Under the pieces are notes generated by a model. The model worked only from the letters and a program-made list of their open reading frames with translations. It made no database searches and had not been told where the DNA came from. A DNA stretch of 64,000 bases from Eubacteriales bacterium (GTDB taxonomy: Bacteria > Bacillota > Clostridia > Oscillospirales > CAG-272): contig JAZSBH010000039.1 in assembly GCA_045602325.1 (NCBI GenBank), forward strand, positions 18,918 through 82,917, in the 5' to 3' direction. The position numbers and the translations under genes were made by a program. This document shows, in pieces, positions 21,996 through 37,658 of the stretch; position 1 is the stretch's first letter; the number at the start of each line of letters is the position of its first letter.

Positions 21996-23393
21996 TTAGA
22001 ATGCGATGACCTTTTCAATATAAGCCTTCAGTTCGGAGATGGGCAGTCTCACCTGCTCCATGGTGTCACGGTCGCGAACAGTCACGCAACCGTCGGTCTC
22101 GGACTCAAAGTCGTAAGTGATACAGAGGGGAGTACCGATCTCGTCCTGACGGCGGTAACGCTTACCGATAGAACCGGTCTCGTCGAACTCCATGTTGAAG
22201 TACTTGGCCAGCTCGTCGTAAACCTGGCCTGCCTTCTCGGAGAGCTTCTTGGAGAGGGGAAGCACGGCGGCCTTGACGGGAGCCAGAGCGGGATGTAGGT
22301 GGAGCACCACGCGGACATCGTTCTTGGCGGGATCCACGATCTCCTCGTCGTAAGCGTCGCAGAGGAAGGCCAGAGCTACGCGGTCAGCACCCAGAGAGGG
22401 CTCGATGACATAGGGGATGTACTTTTCGTTGGTCTCGGGATCAAAGAACTCCATGGACTCGCCCGATACGGTCTGGTGCTGGGTCAGGTCGTAGTCGGTA
22501 CGGTCAGCGATACCCCAGAGCTCGCCCCAGCCGAAGGGGAACAGGAACTCGATATCGGTGGTACCCTTGGAGTAGAAGCAAAGCTCCTCGGGGCTGTGGT
22601 CGCGCAGACGGAGGTTCTCCTTACGCATACCCAGGTTGTACAGCCACTCCTCGCAGAAGCCTCTCCAGTACTGGAACCACTCCAGGTCGGTGCCGGGCTT
22701 GCAGAAGAACTCCAGCTCCATCTGCTCGAACTCACGGGTACGGAACACGAAGTTACCGGGGGTGATCTCGTTACGGAAGGACTTACCGATCTGACCCACG
22801 CCGAAGGGCATCTTGCGGCGGGTGGAGCGGGCGACGTTCTTGAACTGGACGAAGATACCCTGCGCGGTCTCGGGACGCAGATACACGGTGTTGGAGGAAT
22901 CCTCGGTAACACCGATGAAGGTCTTGAACATCAGGTTGAACTTACGGATGGAGGTGAAGTCACCGCTGCCGCAGGAGGGGCAAACAATGTGCTTTTCCTT
23001 GATGTAGTTCATCATCTCGTCGTCGGTCCAGCCGGCGGGATTGTCCTCCAGACCGTTGACAAAGGCGTAGTCCTCGATGAGCTTGTCGGCTCTGTGGCGA
23101 GTACGGCAGACCTTGCAATCCATGAGGGGGTCAGAGAAGCCGCCCAGGTGGCCCGAGGCGACCCAAGTCTGGGGATTCATGATGATAGCAGAGTCCAGAC
23201 CCACGTTGTAGCGACACTCCTGGACGAACTTCTTCCACCAAGCGCGCTTGACGTTATTCTTGAACTCAACGCCCAGGGGGCCGTAGTCCCAGGAGTTGGC
23301 GAGACCGCCGTAGATTTCGGAGCCGGGGAAGATGAAGCCGCGGTTCTTACAGAGTGCGACGATCTTGTCCATTGTCTTTGCAGAATTATCCAT
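21996..23393 (-). CDS. glyQS: glycine--tRNA ligase (homodimeric class II)
   Basis: 465 aa from the ATG at 23393. [26 protein letters not shown] and full-length GlyRS pattern. Confidence 0.95.
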
Positions 23394-23443
23394 GATTCTA
23401 TATACCTCTCTTACAGTATTCAATGAAATAAAAATCAATTGTT

Positions 23444-23487: not shown

Positions 23488-24687
23488 TTATTCCTCGTTT
23501 GCAGGGAGATTCGACAGGGGATACTGAATCACCGTATCTCTTGACAGAGGCTCACCCAGCAGGGGCAGTCCGTCCTCATCAAAGCTGATGGGCTGGACGT
23601 ACATATACCGCCCGCCCTCGCCTGCGTCGGGGGTGTGCATACCGTGGTAGGAGATCCAGGTTACGCCGTCGGGGGTGTTGAAGAAGGCGCAGTGCCCCAC
23701 GCCGTAAACCTCGTTGGCGGCGGAGAAAATGGCCTCGTTGTGTTTCTTCCAGTTGGACTTGTTCATCACGCTGTCCACGGAGAAGTCATCCCCCGTGAAT
23801 TCCAGAAGCCCCAGGCAGTAGTATTCCGACCAACAACCGCTGGCGGAGTAGATGAGGGAGAGTTTGCCGTCATGGCAGAGGAACACGGGGCCCTCGTTGA
23901 CCCGCTCGTCCTTGCCTTCGGTCTTGCCCTGACGCTCCCAGGGATACTTGGGGTAGGACACCTCGATGCGCTTGTCAGATACCGTCCAAGGGTTCTCCAT
24001 GACCGCCAAGGTGATGACCTGCCCCTTGCTCGTGAACTCGGAGAAAGCGGTATAGAGGGTGCCGCTTGCCTCGTCATAGAACACGGTCTGATCAATGGCC
24101 AGAACATTGGGGTCTGTGTATCCCTTGAAGACGTATTCCCCGAAGGGGTCGTTTGTGACCGACTCCAGACAAAACATACGGATGGAGAAGAAATCCCAGC
24201 CGCTCGTGGAGCCGCTGGCGTAAATGTACCAATGGTCGGTGGCGGGATTGTAGTGAAGCTCGGGCGCCCAGATATTGCCCTGCACCGTGTCGTTCAGATT
24301 CATGACAATGATCTTCTCGTCGGTCAGCACGGTCTTGAGATCCTTGCTGCGGTAGAGGGCGATGCCCAGCGCCTCGGTAAAGGTGGCGTAGTAGTAGCCG
24401 TCGTGGTACACCACCACAGGATCGGGGGCAGCACCTGTGGACAGAGGGTTTTGGAAGGATTCCATGACAAAGGTCTCACTTTCTGTTTCGGGCTGTGTTG
24501 GAGTCTCTGTGGGGGGCTCGGTCGTCTCCTGTGCGTGGGCTTCAGTTGTGGGAGAAGTGACCGTGCTACTTTCTGTGGGTCTCTCGGTCCCACCTCCGTT
24601 TCCTGCGAGCGTACAGGAAGCGAGCAGGAGGGTCATAAGCGCCACCCCAAGAGCGGCGGTCTGTTTCAGATGCAGTTGTTTCATCAT
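23488..24687 (-). CDS. glycoside hydrolase family 43 lipoprotein (arabinofuranosidase/xylosidase-type five-bladed propeller)
   Basis: 399 aa. Lipobox LLASC, then a Thr/Glu/Pro-rich linker. DPVVVYHDGYYY, NIWAPELHY and EGPVFLCHDGK motifs. Confidence 0.8.
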   Translation of the reverse strand: MMKQLHLKQTAALGVALMTLLLASCTLAGNGGGTERPTESSTVTSPTTEAHAQETTEPPTETPTQPETESETFVMESFQNPLSTGAAPDPVVVYHDGYYYATFTEALGIALYRSKDLKTVLTDEKIIVMNLNDTVQGNIWAPELHYNPATDHWYIYASGSTSGWDFFSIRMFCLESVTNDPFGEYVFKGYTDPNVLAIDQTVFYDEASGTLYTAFSEFTSKGQVITLAVMENPWTVSDKRIEVSYPKYPWERQGKTEGKDERVNEGPVFLCHDGKLSLIYSASGCWSEYYCLGLLEFTGDDFSVDSVMNKSNWKKHNEAIFSAANEVYGVGHCAFFNTPDGVTWISYHGMHTPDAGEGGRYMYVQPISFDEDGLPLLGEPLSRDTVIQYPLSNLPANEE

Positions 24688-24698
24688 GCCGCCACCCG

Positions 24699-25232
24699 TT
24701 ACGGATTCACGAACTTATCGTTGTACTGCTCAATGCACATTTGGATGATCTCCTCGGCCTCCTTGCGGTCAAAGAGCTCCTTAACGGCGGTCTGCTTGTT
24801 CTCCAGCTGCTTGTAGACCGTGAAGAAGTGCATGATTTCGTCGAAAATGTGGGAGGGCAGCTCGTCGATGGACTTGATGCCGTGATAGGTGGGGTCCGAG
24901 AAGGGAACCGCGATGATCTTATCGTCCAGCTTGCCGCCGTCGTACATCCGCATACATCCGATGGGGTAGACCTGCACCAGGGTCATGGGGTAGATGGGCT
25001 CGGCGCAGAGCACCAGCACGTCCAGGGGATCGCCATCGTCAGCATAGGTACGGGGAATAAAACCGTAGTTAGCGGGGTAGTGGGTGGCGGTGTAGAGCAC
25101 GCGATCCAGACGGCGCATACCGTTCTTCTTGTCCAGCTCGTACTTGCAGGACGAGCCCTTGGGGATCTCGATGACGGCGGTAAAGTCTGTGGGGGCGATC
25201 TCGGCGGGGTCAATGTCGTGCCAAACGTTCAT
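24699..25232 (-). CDS. ppa: inorganic diphosphatase (family I)
   Basis: 177 aa. AAGGAGG SD. YELDKKNG and DGDPLDVLVL motifs. Confidence 0.95.
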   Translation of the reverse strand: MNVWHDIDPAEIAPTDFTAVIEIPKGSSCKYELDKKNGMRRLDRVLYTATHYPANYGFIPRTYADDGDPLDVLVLCAEPIYPMTLVQVYPIGCMRMYDGGKLDDKIIAVPFSDPTYHGIKSIDELPSHIFDEIMHFFTVYKQLENKQTAVKELFDRKEAEEIIQMCIEQYNDKFVNP

Positions 25233-25275: not shown

Positions 25276-25755
25276 TTACGGATGCTCGCGGGTATCGGCG
25301 TAATCGTAAAGAATTTCTTGTGCCCAGTAAGAAGCCGATCTTTCTTCTCCGACGGGAGTTAATTTAATATCGTTCAGCCATAGAAAATAGTGTGTCAGCT
25401 CGTGGGCGATGCATTTGAGGTTTACCGTTAAAATACTGTCTTTTCCCCACTCCTCCAAACGCTTCTCATAATCTCCCGTGGCGATTCGCACGTAAGGCTC
25501 CATCAGTCGGTCGAAGGGACAAAAACACGTTCCGTAGGCAAGATCACCGTCCATACACTGAACCTGTTCGCAAGCCTTGACGTACACGACGACGCGCATG
25601 GGAAATTCATATTCCGAGCGGAGCCAATCGCAGAACTCCATGCAGGCGCGCCGAACCTCCGGGTCGACCCCCTTCTCATACCGTACCCGCAAGCCGGTTC
25701 GGTGAGGGTGTTGGTCGTAGAAGGCGCGCCATTTTTTTGATCGCCAGATGTTCAT
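25276..25755 (-). CDS. hypothetical protein with HExxH motif
   Basis: 159 aa. The obg stop lies 2 nt upstream of the ATG. Contains HELTHY. I recognise no family. Confidence 0.6.
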   Translation of the reverse strand: MNIWRSKKWRAFYDQHPHRTGLRVRYEKGVDPEVRRACMEFCDWLRSEYEFPMRVVVYVKACEQVQCMDGDLAYGTCFCPFDRLMEPYVRIATGDYEKRLEEWGKDSILTVNLKCIAHELTHYFLWLNDIKLTPVGEERSASYWAQEILYDYADTREHP

Positions 25756-25757
25756 GG

Positions 25758-27056
25758 TTACTTCACATAATCAAACTCAAACTCATAGATCGAAACCGTG
25801 TCTCCGTCCTTACAGCCCTTTTCTTCCAGCATCTCAAACACCCCGCTATTCTGCAGGACGCGCTGGAAGTAGTTGAGGGACTCGTAATCGTCGAAGTTGA
25901 TGCGCCCCATGAGGTTGTAGATCCAGTCGCCCTCCACGAAGAAGGTACGGTTCTCCTGGCGGATGACGGTGTCCTTGACACCCGCTCCGGCAATGTCGGA
26001 CAGAAGTGCCTCACCCTCGGCCACCTCGCTCTCGTAGACCGTGATGGGGGGGAGCAGCTTCAGCCGCTCGGAGACGCGGAAGATCATGTCCTGAATGCCC
26101 TCACCCGTGGCGGCGGAGACGTAGATCATCTCCCACTCGTTCTCGTCCACGAAGTCCTCGAAGGCCTGTACGTCCACGACCTCCTCATCCAGCGCGTCGT
26201 ACTTGTTGGCGATGATGATCTGGGGGCGGGTCGCCAGCTCGGGGCTGTACTTTTCCAGCTCGGAGTTGATGTTCTTCACATCCTCGATGGGATCTCTGCC
26301 TTCAAAGCAGGAGATGTCCACCACGTGGAGCAGCAGTCGGCAGCGGTCGATGTGGCGCAGGAAATCGTGCCCCAGACCCGCGCCCTCGGCGGCGCCGTCG
26401 ATGAGTCCGGGAATGTCGGCGGCCACGAAGCCGTCGCCCCCCGCCACCTGGACTACGCCCAGATTGGGAGACAGGGTGGTGAAGTGGTAGTCAGCGATCT
26501 TGGGGCGTGCCGCGCTGATGCGAGCCAGCAGGGAGGACTTACCCACGCTGGGATAGCCGATCAGACCCACGTCTGCGATCATTTTCAGCTCCATGAGGAC
26601 TTCGCGCTCTTCGCCGCGGGTGCCGTTCTTGGCGAACTGGGGAGCCTGACGGGTGGCGGTGGCGAAGTGGCGGTTGCCCCAGCCGCCTCGGCCGCCACGG
26701 CAGCAGATGTAGTCCGCGCCGCCGTTCTCGGACATATCGTGGATGACCTTGCCCGTGGCGGCATCCTTTATGACAGTCCCTTCGGGAACAGGAAGGATCA
26801 GATCCTCGGCGTTGGCGCCGTGGAACTTCTCGGGCATACCGTTGCCGCCGTTCTGAGCGGTAAAGTGGTGCTTGTAGCGGTAGGCCAGCAGGGTATTGGT
26901 GCCCTTGTCCACGCGGAAGACGATGTTACCGCCGTTACCGCCGTCGCCGCCGCTGGGGCCGCCGTGGGAGACGTACTTCTCGCGATGGAAGGCGATGGCA
27001 CCGTTGCCGCCGTTGCCGGCCTTGAGGTAGACTTTTACGTGGTCGAAGAATTGCAT
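25758..27056 (-). CDS. obg: GTPase Obg/CgtA
   Basis: 432 aa. Gly-rich Obg fold (GGNGGNG, GGPSGGDGGNGG). G1 GYPSVGKSS. C-terminal OCT-like domain. AAGGAG SD. Confidence 0.95.
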   Translation of the reverse strand: MQFFDHVKVYLKAGNGGNGAIAFHREKYVSHGGPSGGDGGNGGNIVFRVDKGTNTLLAYRYKHHFTAQNGGNGMPEKFHGANAEDLILPVPEGTVIKDAATGKVIHDMSENGGADYICCRGGRGGWGNRHFATATRQAPQFAKNGTRGEEREVLMELKMIADVGLIGYPSVGKSSLLARISAARPKIADYHFTTLSPNLGVVQVAGGDGFVAADIPGLIDGAAEGAGLGHDFLRHIDRCRLLLHVVDISCFEGRDPIEDVKNINSELEKYSPELATRPQIIIANKYDALDEEVVDVQAFEDFVDENEWEMIYVSAATGEGIQDMIFRVSERLKLLPPITVYESEVAEGEALLSDIAGAGVKDTVIRQENRTFFVEGDWIYNLMGRINFDDYESLNYFQRVLQNSGVFEMLEEKGCKDGDTVSIYEFEFDYVK

Positions 27057-27172
27057 ATGGTTGGTCTCCTTTCGTGGGAGGATGTTATGGAGGAATAATG
27101 GTTAAGCAGGGAAAATGACTTGCAAACCGAATGAACTGTCTATGCGCGGTATGATCCAAAGGTAAAAAAATA

Positions 27173-27639: not shown

Positions 27640-27684
27640 GATGTTATATTGTTGGGTGGATGACGGAAAAGAGTGAAATCGGGA

Positions 27685-27755
27685 AGGGTGACCCTCATCC
27701 GTCACGGCTATGCCGTGCCACCTTCCCCCAGGGGAAGGCAAGCGCGGGGATGGAA
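27685..27755. repeat. right copy of the ~70-bp three-hairpin module
   Basis: AGGGT-g-ACCCT, CACGGC-tat-GCCGTG, CCTTCCCC-ca-GGGGAAGG. Lies 45 nt upstream of the DUF559-like start. Confidence 0.85.
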
Positions 27756-27791
27756 TTTATGTGGAGAAGCTATACACCGCGTGGGATGAGA

Positions 27792-29183
27792 TCACTCCCC
27801 CAATCCATCATCATCCTCGTCTTCCTTCTTATCCTTCTTCCCCCTGATATTGATCTCGGGATCGTCACCCCTCTGCTTAATGATCATCTTGATGGGCGTT
27901 CCCTTGAATCCATAGGTCTCCCGCAGACAGTTCTCAATATACCGTTGGTAAGAGAAGTGGAACAGCTCGGCCATATTGCAGAACAGCACGAAGGTGGGGG
28001 GCGCGGTCTGGGTTTGGGTCATATAGTAGATCTTGAGCCGGCGGCCCTTGTCTGTGGGAGGCTGGACACGCATCATGGCCTCGCCCAGCACGTCGTTGAG
28101 CGCGCCCGTGGTGACACGGAGGTGAGACTGCTCGTAGACCGAGAGGATGAGGTCGTAGAGTCCGTCGATGCGCTGGCCGGTCTTGGCCGAAACAAAGGTG
28201 ATGGGGGCGTAGGGCATATAGGCCAGAGAATCACGAATGCGGTCGGTGAATTCCTTGACGGTGCTGTTGTCCTTTTCAATGGAATCCCACTTGTTGACCA
28301 CGATGATGGTGGCCTTACCCGCTTCGTGGGCGATACCAGCGATCTTCTCGTCCTGCTCGGTGATGCCCACCGACGCGTCGATCATGAGGAGGCAGACGTC
28401 GGCTCTCTCCACCGCCATATGGGCGCGGAGTACCGAGTATTTCTCGATCTGATCCCCAATCTTGGACTGACGGCGGATGCCCGCGGTGTCGATGAAGGTA
28501 AAGGTTCCGCGCTCATTGACCAGACGGGTGTCCACCGCATCACGGGTGGTGCCGGCGATGTCGGATACGATCATGCGGTTCTCGCCCAGGAAGCGGTTGA
28601 TGATGGAGGATTTGCCCGCATTGGGCTTACCGATGACGGCGATCTTGATGCCGCTCTCTTCCTCTTCGCCCTCTTCCCAGTCGGCAAGAGCCTCACAGCA
28701 GGCGTCCAGCAGGTCGCCGGTACCCGAGCCGTGGATGGAGGACACCGCTACAGGGTCGCAGTCAAAGCCCAGTTCGTAGAACTCGTAGTATTCAAAGGGA
28801 AGATCGCCTACGCGGTCGCACTTGTTGATGCAGGGAATGATGGGCTTGCCGCTCTTCTGGAGCATGACTCCGATGTCGCGGTCGGCGGCGGTCAGACCCG
28901 TGCGGACGTCGCACATGAAAACAATGACGTCAGCGTCGTCGATGGCCACCTGGGCCTGCACCTTCATCTGGGACAGGATGATGTCGTCGGTCTTGGGCTC
29001 GATACCGCCGGTGTCGATGAGGATCAGCTGACGGCCATTCCATTCGGTCTCGCCGTAGATGCGGTCGCGGGTGACACCGGGGGTATCCTCCACGATGGAG
29101 CGACGCTCGCCGATAAGCTTATTGAACAGGGTGGATTTGCCCACGTTGGGGCGGCCGACAATAGCGATAATGGGTTTGGACAT
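27792..29183 (-). CDS. der: ribosome-biogenesis GTPase Der (EngA)
   Basis: 463 aa. Tandem G domains (GRPNVGKST, GKPNAGKSS). KH-like C-terminus plus a charged tail. AAGGAG SD. Confidence 0.95.
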   Translation of the reverse strand: MSKPIIAIVGRPNVGKSTLFNKLIGERRSIVEDTPGVTRDRIYGETEWNGRQLILIDTGGIEPKTDDIILSQMKVQAQVAIDDADVIVFMCDVRTGLTAADRDIGVMLQKSGKPIIPCINKCDRVGDLPFEYYEFYELGFDCDPVAVSSIHGSGTGDLLDACCEALADWEEGEEEESGIKIAVIGKPNAGKSSIINRFLGENRMIVSDIAGTTRDAVDTRLVNERGTFTFIDTAGIRRQSKIGDQIEKYSVLRAHMAVERADVCLLMIDASVGITEQDEKIAGIAHEAGKATIIVVNKWDSIEKDNSTVKEFTDRIRDSLAYMPYAPITFVSAKTGQRIDGLYDLILSVYEQSHLRVTTGALNDVLGEAMMRVQPPTDKGRRLKIYYMTQTQTAPPTFVLFCNMAELFHFSYQRYIENCLRETYGFKGTPIKMIIKQRGDDPEINIRGKKDKKEDEDDDGLGE

Positions 29184-29243
29184 GGTTATATAGTCTCCTT
29201 TCGGTCAGGGAAGGGTATTTTTTGATTTTGGTACTTGCGTGGT

Positions 29244-31708: not shown

Positions 31709-31780
31709 CCTGTCCGGAAATAATCGCATAATCAACCAAAAGCGACTGCTCCTTGTGGGACAGCCGCTTTTTCTATGGGA

Positions 31781-34639
31781 TCAATTATCTTTCTTTTTGC
31801 GCTTTGCGGTCAGCACCGCGCTGCCCGCCAGGGCGAGGGGCAGAATCAAGGAGGGAAGCATCGATCCGCACCCCTTGGAATCCTCACTGTCGGTTTCGGT
31901 TTCGGTGTCGGTCGTAACGTTAGGTGCCTTGGTAGTCGGCTCGATTACGGAACCCGTTTCTACGTTGGTGGGAATCTCGGTTTCACCCTCGGCGGGAGGT
32001 ACGCTGCCGGGCATGACGGTGTTGAACACGTAGTTCAGTCTGCCCAGAGGCGCCACGTCGCCCTCGGTGTAGAACTGCTCCATGGTGGTGATCTTGGACT
32101 CGCTATCCACCCACTTGAAGTAGAAGTTCATGTAGTCGCAATGGCTGACTCCCAGCATTTCCAGCGGCACCGCGATCATGAGCTGATTTCCCTTGGCGCG
32201 GTAGCTCACCTCGCCGACGATCTCAAAGGAGTAAGCACCGTCCTTGCCGTTGTACTTAGCCACCGTGGTGGTGAATTCGTCCTTTGCCTGATAGTTGACA
32301 ATGAAGTCGTAGCCGTACCAGCCTGTTGCAGCATTCTGATCGGCATCGATAAGGAGCTGCATCCAGGAGGAATTGGGATCGAACATGGAAACGTCGTGAC
32401 GGGTCTGTGCATAGAAATAGATATTCTTGGTATCATGGGTGATCTTGGAAGCCAGAATGTCGTTGCGTCCCGTGGTATCGGTGTAGCGCTGGTTGCCGTA
32501 GCCGTCAAAATCACGATCCAGACAATCGTTTTTCGGGTCGGTATAGGTCAGGGTCACGCTGTCCCACTGGGTGAAATCACCCGTAACGTTGATGGGATTG
32601 CGGGCATCCTGCAGAATGATGGGAGCCATACCCTTGAGCTTCTGGATGTTGTAGGCGAGCTGGATGTAGTAGTTATCGAAGTAACCGCCCTTCATCATCT
32701 CAATATCGCGGGAGAACTCCACCGAGGCCAGATCCACGAAGTGCGCGTACTCGTTGGAGGTGGACTGAAGCTGTGCGATCCATTCGTTCCAGCCCGTGAC
32801 CAGCACGAAGGGAACGTCAGCCTTGTGGGCTACGTCCCATTGAGCCTGGAAGTTGAGGCCCTGCTTATACAGTTCGGGATCAGCGGCGATGGCATTATAG
32901 TATTCCTCGGTGAGCTTGTCGGTGAGCTTGTCGGTGAGCTTGGCAGAACCGTAGGAGCGCCCCAGGTTGGTACGGTCCATCTTATCGTAGATGGAATCGC
33001 TGAAGCGCCATGTGCCGCGGTGCTGAGCAACCGAGACATTGATGGCAGATTGTTTACCTTTATCGTCGCGGTAGATGTATTGGGGCCGCTTCCCGTCCAT
33101 CCAGGGCCAGGCATTGATGTGATTTTCTGGCTCGGTGGGCCATTGATTGATCTTCATGGTGAAGAAATTATCGATGTTCGCGTCTGCGGGACCCACGATG
33201 ACCGGCTTACCGTCAATGCAGAACCAGGTGTCGGAGTAGTGGCCGGGCTTGTAGATCTCGTTATAGAGGTTACGGATCATGTTCGAGGCGTTGGTATTGG
33301 TGTAGAACACCACACCGGGGGCATCGTAGCCCTGCTGATTCAACTCGTGGAGGATCTTCATGATCTTGAGCGCGGTATCCGAATGGGTGTGGTTATTGGT
33401 GGTGTCAAAGAACAGGAAATCAATGCCGATGTTGGAGAGAAGCTCCATGTGCTTGCGGAGCACCCACTCGTCATTGATATAATAGTAGCCGTACAAAGGC
33501 TCGCCGAACCAATGGAACTCTCCTACCTGACCGTATTTACCCGTGGAGAGCTTACCCTTGTCGGCATCGGGGGTGGAGTCCAGAATATCCTGGAGATTGT
33601 AGATCTCGTCCGTGGGTGCGTGCTTGCCGTGCCAGAGGAAGTAGAAGAGCCCCACGTTCCGCTCGCCGTTGTCCCCGATGACACCCACCTGGGTTGCATC
33701 GTACAGGGAGCGTCCCAGATCGTCGGTGCCTGCAAAGCCGCCGAAGCAGTTGATAGCATGGTTGGGGACCGTGTAAGACCGGGTCTCGCCGTTTACCTCA
33801 TAGGAGATCGTTACGGTCTTGCCGTCGTCGGACTCGGTGAAGGTCAGAGAGCCTGCGCGGGTGTCCTCGGGGGTCGTATCCATATCCTTGTATGCGGGAT
33901 CGGTCCACTCAACGGTGGCGCCGGTCTCCTCCTCCTCGTCGGTACTGCCGCCGGCGTTCTCCTTCTCCCAGGCCAGGAGCTTTTGGTACTCGTCGTAGTT
34001 GAAGCCCTCGGCGCCGTCCTCGGTGTCGAAAAAGGCGATACAGCGGATGTCGATGGCGTCCCCGGGCTGGATCTTGGGGTTCAGGGGATCGAAGCGAAAG
34101 GCGGTGAAGGCCACTGCATCGTCCACGTCCTTCCAGGCCTCGCAGACCACGGTGATCTTGGCGAACTCCTTGGTGGGCTTCCAGCGCCAGATCTGGACGC
34201 CGCCCTTCTGGCCCATCTGCACCCCGTCGGAGCGGTTGCAGTACAGCTCGCCATCCTTGTCCATGTCGGTGCGGTAGATGATGGCCACCGACTTGCACTC
34301 CGAGGGCTTCATGTCGGGGACGTAGAGATTGCACATGGGATCGTCGGCGGTGGCGGTGAAGGTCGTATGGGAGCCCTCTGTGACGACGGCTGTGGTGTTG
34401 CCGATTCCCTCAAAGCTGAAGTAGGCGGTCAGATCCATGTAGTGGATCGGGATCGTGGAATTGATCTCCGGCTTCTTCGCAGAGAGGAGATCGAAGGAAT
34501 AGGCATCGTTGTTCATGATATTTTCGGAATAGTCCTTTTCGGTATTGTTTGAGGCAGAGCATCCCATCAAAGCCGCCGCGCCTCCAAGAAGGGAGGCGCA
34601 GAGGATGGATGCCACAGCCCGTTTGACGCTGTGTTTCAT
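31781..34639 (-). CDS. large surface protein, paralog A: lipoprotein signal, N-terminal domain, glycoside-hydrolase-like core, C-terminal TM anchor
   Basis: 952 aa. Lipobox LMGC. Core conserved with paralog B (VGLFYFLW, EPLYGYYY, IDFLFFDTTN, TGWNEW, TGRNDI). Acidic Thr-rich linker, then GCGS + 20 hydrophobic residues + KRKKKDN. The CDS itself is firm; the enzymatic call is weak. Confidence 0.6.
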   Translation of the reverse strand: MKHSVKRAVASILCASLLGGAAALMGCSASNNTEKDYSENIMNNDAYSFDLLSAKKPEINSTIPIHYMDLTAYFSFEGIGNTTAVVTEGSHTTFTATADDPMCNLYVPDMKPSECKSVAIIYRTDMDKDGELYCNRSDGVQMGQKGGVQIWRWKPTKEFAKITVVCEAWKDVDDAVAFTAFRFDPLNPKIQPGDAIDIRCIAFFDTEDGAEGFNYDEYQKLLAWEKENAGGSTDEEEETGATVEWTDPAYKDMDTTPEDTRAGSLTFTESDDGKTVTISYEVNGETRSYTVPNHAINCFGGFAGTDDLGRSLYDATQVGVIGDNGERNVGLFYFLWHGKHAPTDEIYNLQDILDSTPDADKGKLSTGKYGQVGEFHWFGEPLYGYYYINDEWVLRKHMELLSNIGIDFLFFDTTNNHTHSDTALKIMKILHELNQQGYDAPGVVFYTNTNASNMIRNLYNEIYKPGHYSDTWFCIDGKPVIVGPADANIDNFFTMKINQWPTEPENHINAWPWMDGKRPQYIYRDDKGKQSAINVSVAQHRGTWRFSDSIYDKMDRTNLGRSYGSAKLTDKLTDKLTEEYYNAIAADPELYKQGLNFQAQWDVAHKADVPFVLVTGWNEWIAQLQSTSNEYAHFVDLASVEFSRDIEMMKGGYFDNYYIQLAYNIQKLKGMAPIILQDARNPINVTGDFTQWDSVTLTYTDPKNDCLDRDFDGYGNQRYTDTTGRNDILASKITHDTKNIYFYAQTRHDVSMFDPNSSWMQLLIDADQNAATGWYGYDFIVNYQAKDEFTTTVAKYNGKDGAYSFEIVGEVSYRAKGNQLMIAVPLEMLGVSHCDYMNFYFKWVDSESKITTMEQFYTEGDVAPLGRLNYVFNTVMPGSVPPAEGETEIPTNVETGSVIEPTTKAPNVTTDTETETDSEDSKGCGSMLPSLILPLALAGSAVLTAKRKKKDN
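32907..32942. repeat. perfect 12-bp x3 in-frame tandem repeat inside paralog A
   Basis: TCGGTGAGCTTG repeated three times. Encodes KLTD-KLTD-KLTE on the minus strand. Confidence 0.9.
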
Positions 34640-34663
34640 GGTAGAGTCCTTTCGTCGCTCGGA

Positions 34664-37582
34664 TTACTGTTCCTTACGCTTGATGAACACGACGGAGGAG
34701 AGGAGTGCCATCAGCGCGATGAAGCCCGCGGAAATAACGGTGGATTTGCATCCGCCGGAGGCAGGCTCGGTCTCGGAGACGCCGGGGGTCTCGACGGCGG
34801 GGGCGTCCGTGGGTGTCTCGGTGTCGGGAGTCTGGGTCTCGGGCTCGGTCACGGGTTGAGTCTCGGGAGCCGTAGTCTCATCCTCGGGGTAGGAGATGTT
34901 GGATACACCGGGGATGTAGTTTTGGAAGACGTAATTCATTCTTCCCAAAGGTGCCACGTCGCCGTCGCAGTAGAAGTCCTCCATCTCGTCGTAGGTGGTT
35001 TCGCTGTCGGCCCACTTGAACTGGAAGCAGAGCTCTTTGTAGCCCTCGATGCCCAACAGCTCCTGGGGAACCTCGATCATCATCTTGTTCTCCTTGACGC
35101 GGTAGGCGACCTCACCCACGGTGGTAAAGCCGTACTGACCGTCGGTGCCGTTGTATTTAGCTACGGTGGTGACGGTACCGCTCTTGACCTCGTAGTTTAC
35201 GACATAGTCGTAGCCGTACCAGCCTGTACTGCCGTTGCTGTCGGCGTCGATGTACAGCTTCATCCAGGAGGAATCGTTGTCATACAAAGGAATTTTGTCG
35301 GCGGTCTCAACGTAGAAGTAAATGTTCTTGGAATCAGCGGTCACCTTGGTAGCAACGATGTCGTTACGGCCGGAGGTGTTGGTATAGGGGGTTCTGCCGA
35401 AGCCAATGGCGTCGCGGTCAGCGGTATCGCCCTTGGCGTCGTAGTAGGTGAAAGCGACGGCATCCCATTGGTCAAACTCACCCGTGACGTTGATGGGATT
35501 GCGGGCATCCTGTACCACAATGGGGGCTGCCCCCTTGACGCGCTGGACGTTGTAAGCAAGCTGGATGTAGTAGTTATCGAAGTAACCGCCCCGCATCATC
35601 TCGGAGTCGCGGGAGAACTCCATGGAGGAGGTGTCCACGAAGAAGATACTGCCGTCATTGGTGGGCTGACGCTGGGCGACCCACTCGTTCCAGCCGGTGA
35701 CCAGGATGTACATAGCACCCGAGTCAATGGCGCGGTCGAACTGTGCCTGGAAGTTGAGACCCTGGTTGGTGAGGGTTGGATCGGCCTTCCACTCGTCGTA
35801 GCGCTGCTGGAGAATCTTTTCGTTGGAGCGCTTCTCTGCCCAGAAAGAGCGGCCGCGGTTGGAGGGATCGTTGTACAGGGAGGAGCTGGAGAAGCGGACG
35901 GAACCGCTGTGCTGGGCGATGGAGACGCTGATGGCGGCGCCGTCAAAGTCGTAAGCCGAGCGGAACAGGCGGGACGGCCACTGGAAGTCCATCCAAGGCC
36001 AGCCGTTGACCTTGGACTGCTCGGTGGGCCACTGGTTCTGCTTCATGGTGAAGAAATCGTTGATGTTGGCCTCGTTGGGACCGATGATGACCGGCTTACC
36101 GTTGATCTTGAACCAGGTGTCCTCGTACAGACCCTTGCTGTAGATGTCGTTGTAGACCTGGCGGATAACGTTCTCGGCGGAGGAGTTGGTGTAGAAGACC
36201 ACCTGAGGTGCGTCAAAGCCCTGCTCGTTGAGCTCGTGGAGGCACTCCATGAGCTTCTTGGCGTTGTGGAGGTAGGGGTAGCCGTTGGTGGTATCGAAAT
36301 ACAGGAAGTCGATGTTGGCCTGGGTCAGAAGCTCGGCGTGCTTGCGATGTACCCACTGGTCGTTGGCGTAGTAGTAGCCGTAGAGGGGCTCGGCAAACCA
36401 GTGCATGGCGCCCACGGGGCCGTACTTGCCGCATTTGGTGTTGCCTGCAGCCTCAACACCCACCTCATCGATGATCTTCTGCAAGTCGAAGATACCGCTG
36501 TCGCCGTGCTCACCCTGCCACAGGAAGTAGAACAGACCGACGTACTTCTCACCGGTGGAGCCGTAGGCGCCTACGTCGGTAGAGGTGTACATGGTGCGGT
36601 CGAGGTCGTCGGTGGCGGCGTAACCGCCCATGGTGTAGTTGTAGTTGTTGGGCACGGTGTAAGAGACGGTCTCGCCGTTTACGTGATAGGAAATGGTGAC
36701 ACTCTTACCGTCCTCGGAGACCTCGTACTTGAGGGAACCGCCGTCGGTGTCCTCGGGGGTGGTCTCCTTTTCCGTGTATGTCGGTGTCTCCCAAGCGTAG
36801 TTTTTCTTGGCCTCCTCTTCTTGGCGCTTCAGTTCCTCTTCATAAGCCAGCTTGGCGATATACTGCTCCATATCGAAACCGTTGTAGAGCTCCTCGGTCT
36901 CAAAGAAGGCGATGAAGCGGATGTCGATGGAAGCGCCTGCGGGGATGGGGTACTTGACCCAGCCGGTAGAATCCTTGTAGGGCTCGCCGTTCTCGTTGAG
37001 CACGTAGCCGGCCTCCAGGGGATCGAAGCGGAAGAAGGTAGATTTCGTGCCGTTGTAGGCACCGCTGTCGATGATGGGCTGGGTGTCGAAGCCGTGGGCG
37101 TGCCACTCGCCGTCTGCAACCACAGCGGTCTCCAGCATAGCTGTGTCGTCCTTGGGGTCATTGCCGGTGGAGCCCATGTAGCACTGAATGGTGGTGTTCT
37201 CGGCATTGGAGGAGCGGTAGGCGATGACCACGTACTTGACAGGCATATCCAAGGTGGACATGGGGCGGAAGTAGGGGTCGGCGGCAGAGGGGGTAATGGT
37301 GACGTAACCGTCCTTCAGCTCGACCGAGCCCAGTCTGTCATTGGCACCCGTAGCCTTAGACAGCTCCTCGGCGGTGAGGATGTGGGAGGGCTCGGTGGTA
37401 TTAAAGGTAGGTGCCTCGTCTGCCAGGAGATCGAAGGTGTGCCGATCGCCCGTGCTGGCTGCTGCCTCGGAGGAGAGGACTGTAGCGAGCATCGTAGCGG
37501 TCAGTGTGGCGACAGAGCCGAGCATGAGCACGGCCAGAAGAACCGACATGATCGTCAGAAGAGTTTTCTTTTTTGCGTTCAT
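34664..37582 (-). CDS. large surface protein, paralog B: signal/anchor peptide, same core as paralog A, C-terminal TM anchor
   Basis: 972 aa. Roughly 55-60 percent identical to paralog A across the core by eye, with identical DNA runs of over 20 nt (for example GCTGGATGTAGTAGTTATCGAAGTAACCGCC and ACGTTGATGGGATTGCGGGCATCCTG in both). Pro/Thr/Glu linker, then GGCKS + hydrophobic stretch + KRKEQ. Confidence 0.6.
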   Translation of the reverse strand: MNAKKKTLLTIMSVLLAVLMLGSVATLTATMLATVLSSEAAASTGDRHTFDLLADEAPTFNTTEPSHILTAEELSKATGANDRLGSVELKDGYVTITPSAADPYFRPMSTLDMPVKYVVIAYRSSNAENTTIQCYMGSTGNDPKDDTAMLETAVVADGEWHAHGFDTQPIIDSGAYNGTKSTFFRFDPLEAGYVLNENGEPYKDSTGWVKYPIPAGASIDIRFIAFFETEELYNGFDMEQYIAKLAYEEELKRQEEEAKKNYAWETPTYTEKETTPEDTDGGSLKYEVSEDGKSVTISYHVNGETVSYTVPNNYNYTMGGYAATDDLDRTMYTSTDVGAYGSTGEKYVGLFYFLWQGEHGDSGIFDLQKIIDEVGVEAAGNTKCGKYGPVGAMHWFAEPLYGYYYANDQWVHRKHAELLTQANIDFLYFDTTNGYPYLHNAKKLMECLHELNEQGFDAPQVVFYTNSSAENVIRQVYNDIYSKGLYEDTWFKINGKPVIIGPNEANINDFFTMKQNQWPTEQSKVNGWPWMDFQWPSRLFRSAYDFDGAAISVSIAQHSGSVRFSSSSLYNDPSNRGRSFWAEKRSNEKILQQRYDEWKADPTLTNQGLNFQAQFDRAIDSGAMYILVTGWNEWVAQRQPTNDGSIFFVDTSSMEFSRDSEMMRGGYFDNYYIQLAYNVQRVKGAAPIVVQDARNPINVTGEFDQWDAVAFTYYDAKGDTADRDAIGFGRTPYTNTSGRNDIVATKVTADSKNIYFYVETADKIPLYDNDSSWMKLYIDADSNGSTGWYGYDYVVNYEVKSGTVTTVAKYNGTDGQYGFTTVGEVAYRVKENKMMIEVPQELLGIEGYKELCFQFKWADSETTYDEMEDFYCDGDVAPLGRMNYVFQNYIPGVSNISYPEDETTAPETQPVTEPETQTPDTETPTDAPAVETPGVSETEPASGGCKSTVISAGFIALMALLSSVVFIKRKEQ

Positions 37583-37629
37583 AGTCTGTATCCTTTCTTA
37601 TACACCGCATAAGGGTGGGAATCATACAT

Positions 37630-37658
37630 ATTATATCAAATGAATACGATTTTTGCAA
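37630..37658 (-). promoter_or_regulatory. sigma-A type promoter for the paralog B/A pair
   Basis: Minus strand reads TTGCAA, 17 nt, TGaTATAAT. Confidence 0.6.

Follow-up and report, generated by a model that had tools for sequence, protein, structure and literature searches.

The window analyzed here is a 64,000-nucleotide (nt) stretch of the Eubacteriales assembly GCA_045602325.1 (contig JAZSBH010000039.1). It carries a tandem pair of large genes, here termed A and B, for predicted surface proteins whose core is distantly related to glycoside hydrolase (GH) family 99. A preliminary description made from the letters alone had proposed two adjacent genes on the same strand, 24 nt apart and served by a single promoter. 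Both open reading frames (ORFs) were found at the proposed coordinates, and a promoter-like site was located at the proposed position upstream of B (Table 1). The gap between the genes (34640-34663) contains an AAAGGA ribosome-binding site for A, and the terminator-like hairpin past A is followed by UUUUGGUU. With the promoter-like site, the short gap and the terminator-like hairpin, A and B therefore look like a single operon.

A and B showed 45% identity over the full length and 55-57% over the core by BLASTP, in line with the 55-60% that had been estimated by eye for the core. The longest DNA runs identical between the two genes measured 33, 26 and 22 nt, and the description had mentioned runs above 20 nt. 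All of its quoted sequence motifs were present in the A and B translations. Its proposed domain order was reproduced by an AlphaFold2 model of B, which was calculated with 53 homologues as input and reached a mean predicted local distance difference test (pLDDT) of 85 and a predicted template modeling score (pTM) of 0.71. The view of the pair as paralogous surface-anchored proteins was supported.

Table 1. Coordinates of the A/B gene pair, its candidate transcription signals and the domains of both proteins in the window.
Feature	Positions	Strand	Size or residues	Description
Promoter-like site	37630-37658	minus		Sigma-70 type, upstream of B; TTGCAA-17-TGnTATAAT; 10/12 matches, extended TG present
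Gene B	34664-37582	minus	972 aa	GH99-like surface protein
B export signal	37463-37582	minus	1-40	KKK n-region and 30-residue hydrophobic helix (model helix 4-40); predicted signal peptide or uncleaved signal anchor
B N-terminal domain	36887-37405	minus	60-232	Carbohydrate-binding-module-like beta-jelly-roll; motifs RFDPL, IDIRFIAFF
B helix and beta unit	36650-36871	minus	238-311	Long charged helix 238-261 and three-strand beta unit (TISYHVNGET; strands 285-288, 294-301, 304-311)
B barrel	35528-36625	minus	320-685	(beta/alpha)8-like barrel
B C-terminal sandwich	34913-35515	minus	690-890	Beta-sandwich; invariant R723, N740, D859, plus GD-AP-GR motif
B linker and tail	34667-34885	minus	900-972	Pro/Thr/Glu-rich disordered linker (pLDDT <50), G-G-C-K-S, transmembrane helix 954-971, KRKEQ
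Gene A	31781-34639	minus	952 aa	Paralogue of B, 24 nt downstream of B, own ribosome-binding site
A export signal	34559-34639	minus	1-27	Lipoprotein-type signal peptide by pattern reading; lipobox L-M-G-C, Cys27
A N-terminal domain	33995-34507	minus	~45-215	Carbohydrate-binding-module-like; 29% identity to B domain
A barrel	32630-33736	minus	~302-670	Barrel; E619 and A622 equivalent to B E633 and A636
A C-terminal sandwich	32021-32617	minus	~675-873	Beta-sandwich
A tail	31784-31879	minus	921-952	K-G-C-G-S, transmembrane helix, KRKKKDN
Terminator-like hairpin	31736-31770	minus		Intrinsic type, directly past A stop codon; -21 kcal/mol, z = -4.5

Direct sequence searches with A and B against Pfam-A, NCBIfam and the PDB returned no match. 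The family to which they belong was nevertheless large, with more than 1,398 matches in a 5.8-billion-protein set, all labelled 'hypothetical'. HMMER, run exhaustively over 1.84 billion cluster representatives, gave 2,506 matches with E <= 1e-3, of which 964 had E <= 1e-30. None of its clusters (~2,500, defined at 50% identity) is characterized. The conserved unit spanned B residues ~320-887 and comprised the barrel and the C-terminal sandwich, which always occurred together, either alone (~560-620 aa) or within proteins of up to 2,700 aa.

We built a family profile from 39 diverse members and compared it with the PDB. The profile matched GH99 structures only (BtGH99 E = 4e-8, BxGH99 2e-6, human MANEA 1e-4). 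Its alignment to GH99 paired FY(F/Y)xW on strand 1, PxxGxYxSxDxxxxRKH, and the NEW motif, (T/S)x(W/F)NEW, which holds the general-base Glu. In a Foldseek comparison of the B model with the PDB, the best barrel was BxGH99 (4ad1; probability 1.0, template modeling score normalized to the target 0.50, 14% identity) and nothing was closer. The Pfam Glyco_hydro_99 model (PF16317) gave weak matches in 12 of the 39 relatives. A and B did not match it even at E <= 1, and its best score anywhere in the genome was 20.3 bits against a cut-off of 33. Neither protein matched the models of GH71 (PF03659) or WbsX (PF14307), and WbsX was touched by one of the 39 relatives, at 2.5e-4. GH71 alpha-1,3-glucanases, WbsX and the uncharacterized 'GH99_GH71_like' groups of NCBI CDD belong to the same broad barrel group and have in common an N-(E/D)-aromatic motif toward the end of the barrel.

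The preliminary description had likened the hydrolase-like core to GH99/GH71-type TIM barrels and had been unable to assign it to a family. Both statements held, as GH99 proteins were the only structural relatives by profile and the best barrel by fold, no Pfam or NCBIfam model was reached, and no clear assignment to a characterized CAZy family emerged. Searches of the literature on GH99-like proteins, on WbsX in connection with glycoside hydrolases and on new families close to GH99 did not find a description of the family. By comparison with Pfam, NCBIfam and the PDB, the family is unclassified and uncharacterized. Judged from these alignments, it is homologous to GH99 and lies outside GH99 membership, probably as a remote sister family of CAZy GH99 in the group of TIM barrels of GH99/GH71/WbsX type.

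The shared (beta/alpha)8 barrel and motifs allowed us to compare the active sites with those of the GH99 structures (BtGH99 4acz, BxGH99 4ad1, human MANEA 6zdc). The motifs of the B barrel were FYFLW, EPLYGYYY, DFLYFDTTN (with D425, D430 and N433), TGWNEW-x-A (with E633 and A636), D650 and SRDSE (with D659 and E661). GH99 is among the few glycosidase families proposed to act via a 1,2-anhydro-sugar intermediate, in an unusual epoxide mechanism driven by the general base. BxGH99 has E333 as its general base and E336 as its catalytic acid, and mutants of both residues, including E336Q, are inactive (PMC6055899). We counted conservation over 337 family sequences. The position of E333 (E633 in B, E619 in A) was Glu in 335 of them. 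The position of E336 (A636 in B, A622 in A) was Ala in 322 (95.5%) and never Asp or Glu. Seven further residues, D425, D430, N433, D650, R658, D659 and D669, were 99-100% conserved, and E661 was 96% conserved; all eight were without a GH99 counterpart in the aligned stretches. In the B model D430, E633 and D650 were located at the C-terminal ends of barrel strands. Since the acid position is Ala and the invariant carboxylates are family-specific, A and B are not members of GH99.

These counts bear directly on whether A and B are true GH99 enzymes, with endo-alpha-1,2-mannosidase or mannanase activity toward yeast mannan or N-glycans, and have diverged in sequence alone. Such an identity would explain why GH99 was the sole family reached by both profile and fold and why the NEW motif has survived together with the general-base Glu. 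However, we consider it very improbable, because the acid is missing throughout the family and the E336Q mutant of BxGH99 is inactive, and because Pfam GH99 scores in the genome stayed at or below 20 bits. The architecture also differs. GH99 chains are ~350 aa long, whereas the barrel here has ~365 aa with large insertions, resembles GH99 at the low score and identity given above, and is always followed by a C-terminal beta-sandwich of 200 aa, in which an Arg, an Asn and an Asp are invariant. As these three residues (R723, N740 and D859 in B) are invariant, the sandwich is probably part of the functional site. Ten isolated C-terminal beta domains gave no meaningful match in Pfam, and hints of CBM9 were all sub-threshold (PDB 1i82 at E = 0.11; CBM9_1 in one of the 39 relatives).

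With the GH99 acid replaced by Ala, the acid role would fall to a family-specific invariant carboxylate elsewhere. A different possibility is that the fold was kept and the chemistry altered, to that of a transglycosylase, a phosphorylase, a lyase or a glycosidase with metal assistance, where a bound cation stands in for the missing acid. The lost acid position and the many family-specific invariant Asp residues (D425, D430, D650, D659, D669) are compatible with this, and so is a gene linkage found in a cytoplasmic subfamily. The proteins of this subfamily have 550-565 aa, show 42% identity to the B core and are orthologous to a copy in the source genome itself (G000:C109:3427-5121). In four of the six contexts examined (L083, L085, L088, L089) the subfamily gene was followed on the same strand by cobW (COG0523) and then by a cobW-like/DUF1980_C gene, and DUF436 often came next. 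This linkage may reflect a relation of metallochaperone and client, and it keeps a metal-assisted mechanism under consideration. However, no cobW gene stood beside the cytoplasmic copy of the source genome, where the context was uninformative, or beside A and B. A metal motif rich in His or Cys was not found, the invariant residues (D, E, N, R, W and Y) are of the kind typical for ordinary glycosidases, and the fusion partners of the core (described below) are classical hydrolase accessories. Altered chemistry is thus unlikely in our judgment, though it is the strongest of the rival explanations.

The N-terminal domain of B was also modelled alone, which gave a beta-jelly-roll with a pLDDT of 92. 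Its top folds in Foldseek were CBM86, the BiXyn10A xylan-binding module, CBM4 and CBM6, where CBM stands for carbohydrate-binding module, at template modeling scores of <=0.66 and ~10% identity. The match to CBM86 of Roseburia intestinalis Xyn10A (6sgf) had a score of 0.66 and a probability of 1.0. Unlike the domain in B, these modules are without the long helix that comes after it, and neither A nor B showed a Pfam CBM match. As modelled, the N-terminal domain has a CBM-like jelly-roll fold. For the export signal of A we read K2-R7, a hydrophobic run and then L24-M25-G26-C27, which by eye fits the lipobox [LVI][ASTVIM][GAS]C and the PROSITE pattern PS51257.

The C-terminus of each protein carries a G-C-x-S motif followed by a transmembrane helix and basic residues (31784-31879 in A, 34667-34759 in B). 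No LPXTG motif was found ahead of the helix in either protein, G-C-x-S standing there instead, and TIGR01167 scored 13.8 bits against a cut-off of 15.9. The similarity of the tail to MYXO-CTERM proteins was sub-threshold (E = 0.016), as were matches to the LPXTG and NPXTG models. MYXO-CTERM and the tripartite signals LPXTG and PEP-CTERM have the same layout of low-complexity stalk, short motif, transmembrane helix and basic tail, and the MYXO-CTERM motif contains a Cys, as the A/B tail does. The A/B tail differs from those sorting signals in its Bacillota host, in lacking the LPXTG motif and in its sub-threshold scores. Genome-wide, a tail of this layout (Pro/Thr/Glu stalk, G-C-x-S/T, ~20 hydrophobic residues, KKK/RKR, acidic end) was observed on ~27 ORFs of the 2.4-Mb genome, for example on contigs C37, C157 and C164, and only 7 of these ORFs bear the GH99-like core. 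From its sequence pattern, the tail looks like a lineage-wide sorting signal.

We searched for the core in the source genome, in its genus and in its order. The source genome (2.38 Mb, 88% complete) contained ~19 ORFs with the core. Among the other genomes of the genus, 17 of 18 contained 3-35 matches each and one contained none. Of 151 genomes sampled from the order, the source genome among them, 13 contained the core, with 1-4 copies outside the genus when up to 8 candidates were scored per genome. A maximum-likelihood tree of 68 cores assigned A and B to two different clades, both supported at 100/100. The preliminary description had suggested looking at whether relatives carry one copy or two. 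The B-then-A order recurred in five other species-level metagenome-assembled genomes (L022, L027, L030, L031, L032), and other relatives showed arrays of up to four copies. The separate clades and the recurring order indicate, at the level of sequence comparison, that the pair is an old and maintained duplication. Close B orthologues (~82-86% core identity, seen among P0005-P0036 and L027, L030-L032 and L045) occurred in a long form of ~970-990 aa with the CBM-like module and in a short form of ~740-780 aa without it, so the N-terminal module appears to have been gained or lost recently.

The hosts of these proteins were uncultured Clostridia of deer, goat, sheep, yak, horse and rabbit hindguts. 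Two cultured carriers (proteins P0153 and P0290) were also observed, Paenibacillus nasutitermitis (WP_188992073.1; 'fibronectin type III domain-containing protein' in RefSeq) and Cohnella soli (WP_378138302.1; 'hypothetical protein'), and the core is unannotated in both RefSeq entries. One in-frame stop interrupted the best core match in four genomes from a sister family (f5) in the order. The stop was TGA in three genomes of genus g57 (G154:C12:33629-35290, G078:C1:130876-132540, G100:C2:205962-207605) and TAA in one genome of genus g89 (G138:C4:92988-94643). A split gene that has been conserved, a pseudogene or recoding could account for these stops. On contig C132 of the source genome two other family paralogues flank a stretch of ~3 kb.

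The neighbours of A and B were obg, der, glycyl-tRNA synthetase, pyrophosphatase, a DUF512 radical SAM gene and DUF6062, and a B-like homologue with ~69% core identity also stood among housekeeping genes. We rejected A and B as cargo of a polysaccharide-utilization locus because their neighbours are housekeeping genes. A gene for a GH43 lipoprotein (23488-24687, minus strand; Pfam E = 4e-42) with a Thr/Glu/Pro-rich stalk was observed 7 kb from the pair, likewise with housekeeping neighbours.

In other lineages the core was fused to dockerin I, CBM6, CBM32 (F5/8-C), CBM35, PA14, type IX secretion system (T9SS) tails and SLH, and also to GH43, GH106 alpha-L-rhamnosidase, and GDSL and SASA esterases. 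Nine paralogues from the source genome showed weak matches alone in Pfam, to CBM6, CBM35 and 3-keto-disaccharide hydrolase. A cytoplasmic relative with 33% identity lies in an operon with the order AraC, UxaC, UxuA, SDR, Eda, KdgK, GH28, the family member itself and a GH78-type rhamnosidase, and a GH5-like gene lies downstream of another relative. As weak leads, the fusions and neighbours of these distant relatives hint loosely at plant glycans that contain rhamnose, uronic acid or galactose.

The fusions and the copy numbers also bear on whether A and B are non-catalytic proteins for glycan binding or adhesion at the surface, that is, pseudo-enzymes with a GH99-like shell. One canonical catalytic residue has been lost, the proteins are predicted to be surface-tethered with a CBM-like module, and the many paralogues per genome are reminiscent of binding-protein families. 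On the other hand, about ten polar or acidic strand-end residues are near-absolute across sequences that are only 30-40% identical, which is the pattern of an active site. A surface-binding role cannot account for the cytoplasmic copies without signal peptides, and the dockerin-bearing and GH-fused versions behave as catalytic modules. We regard non-catalytic binding as quite improbable.

Two ORFs on the plus strand (31775-34552 and 34631-37612) were considered as genes and rejected, since they are codon-aligned antisense shadows of A and B. TTA, CTA and TCA codons occurred once in A and not at all in B, and the GC content at third codon positions was ~0.8. The shadow ORFs stay open because these codons are nearly unused (0-1 per ~950 codons). 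Many genes face such near-full-length antisense shadow ORFs, which were also observed on the plus strand at 25737-27098, 27660-29225, 22299-23426 and 23635-24816, and ORF-based gene callers could assign the wrong strand in this genome. Within A, a perfect in-frame repeat of 12 bp x 3 at 32907-32942 encodes KLTDKLTDKLTE in a loop of the barrel region; B has no such repeat.

The explanation that we favour, and consider probable, is that A and B are surface-tethered endo-glycanases of an unclassified family distantly related to GH99. Kinship with GH99 without its catalytic acid suggests that the family is probably an uncharacterized type of glycan-cutting enzyme. The gene structure, the paralogy, the fold, the remote homology to GH99, the residue conservation, the expansion, the fusion partners and the neighbours come directly from the analysis; we infer that the proteins are hydrolases with an endo mode of action, which residues are catalytic and what class of substrate is cut. 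A and B would be co-transcribed as a two-gene operon for extracellular, membrane-tethered glycoside hydrolases. Both proteins would be exported, with A probably lipid-anchored at Cys27, and would be held at the surface by the Gly-Cys-x-Ser/transmembrane/basic C-terminal tail, with a flexible Pro/Thr/Glu stalk between this tail and the folded domains. Docking on a polysaccharide polymer is probably the role of the N-terminal jelly-roll, and the barrel and the obligatory C-terminal beta-sandwich would form the catalytic unit. Catalysis would most likely proceed via the retained GH99-type carboxylate (E633 in B, E619 in A), and the acid role would pass to another invariant carboxylate, specific to this family, in a different loop or strand end (D430, D650, D659 or E661). 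The cytoplasmic paralogues may complete the breakdown of imported oligosaccharides. The substrate is likely to be a polysaccharide of dietary or microbial origin in the herbivore hindgut, with weak leads toward pectic or arabinogalactan-type glycans containing rhamnose and uronic acid, or galactose.

Several points weigh against this explanation. No member of the family has been characterized biochemically, and A and B reach no curated glycosidase model in Pfam or NCBIfam. Without the GH99 acid, the proteins could carry out a reaction other than hydrolysis, and the candidates for the partner carboxylate were picked on conservation and strand position alone. The housekeeping neighbours of A and B give no clue to the substrate, and the pectin and rhamnose leads come from relatives of ~33% identity and from single fusion cases.

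Beyond the preliminary description, the analysis added the missing GH99 acid, the obligatory nature of the C-terminal beta domain, the CBM-like N-terminal domain and the expansion across the genus in place of polysaccharide-utilization-locus cargo. A broader and more tentative proposal, which we hold to be possible but somewhat doubtful, is that the barrel and sandwich found a new glycoside hydrolase family in which the GH99 base is kept and the acid has moved or been replaced, possibly by a metal. The family would then be the main polysaccharide-degrading arsenal of an uncultured genus of herbivore-hindgut Clostridia, and would act on a glycan without an assigned enzyme family. The family occurs in cellulosomal, T9SS-secreted and Gram-positive surface-anchored forms and makes up ~1% of genes in one hindgut genus, and its ~2,500 clusters are yet without a name, a structure or an assayed member. 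For the study of mechanism, the family amounts to a natural experiment in which the GH99 active site retains its base but has lost its acid. Identification of the substrate would add an enzyme family to the annotation catalogue of gut and rumen metagenomes and could explain the niche of this uncultured lineage.

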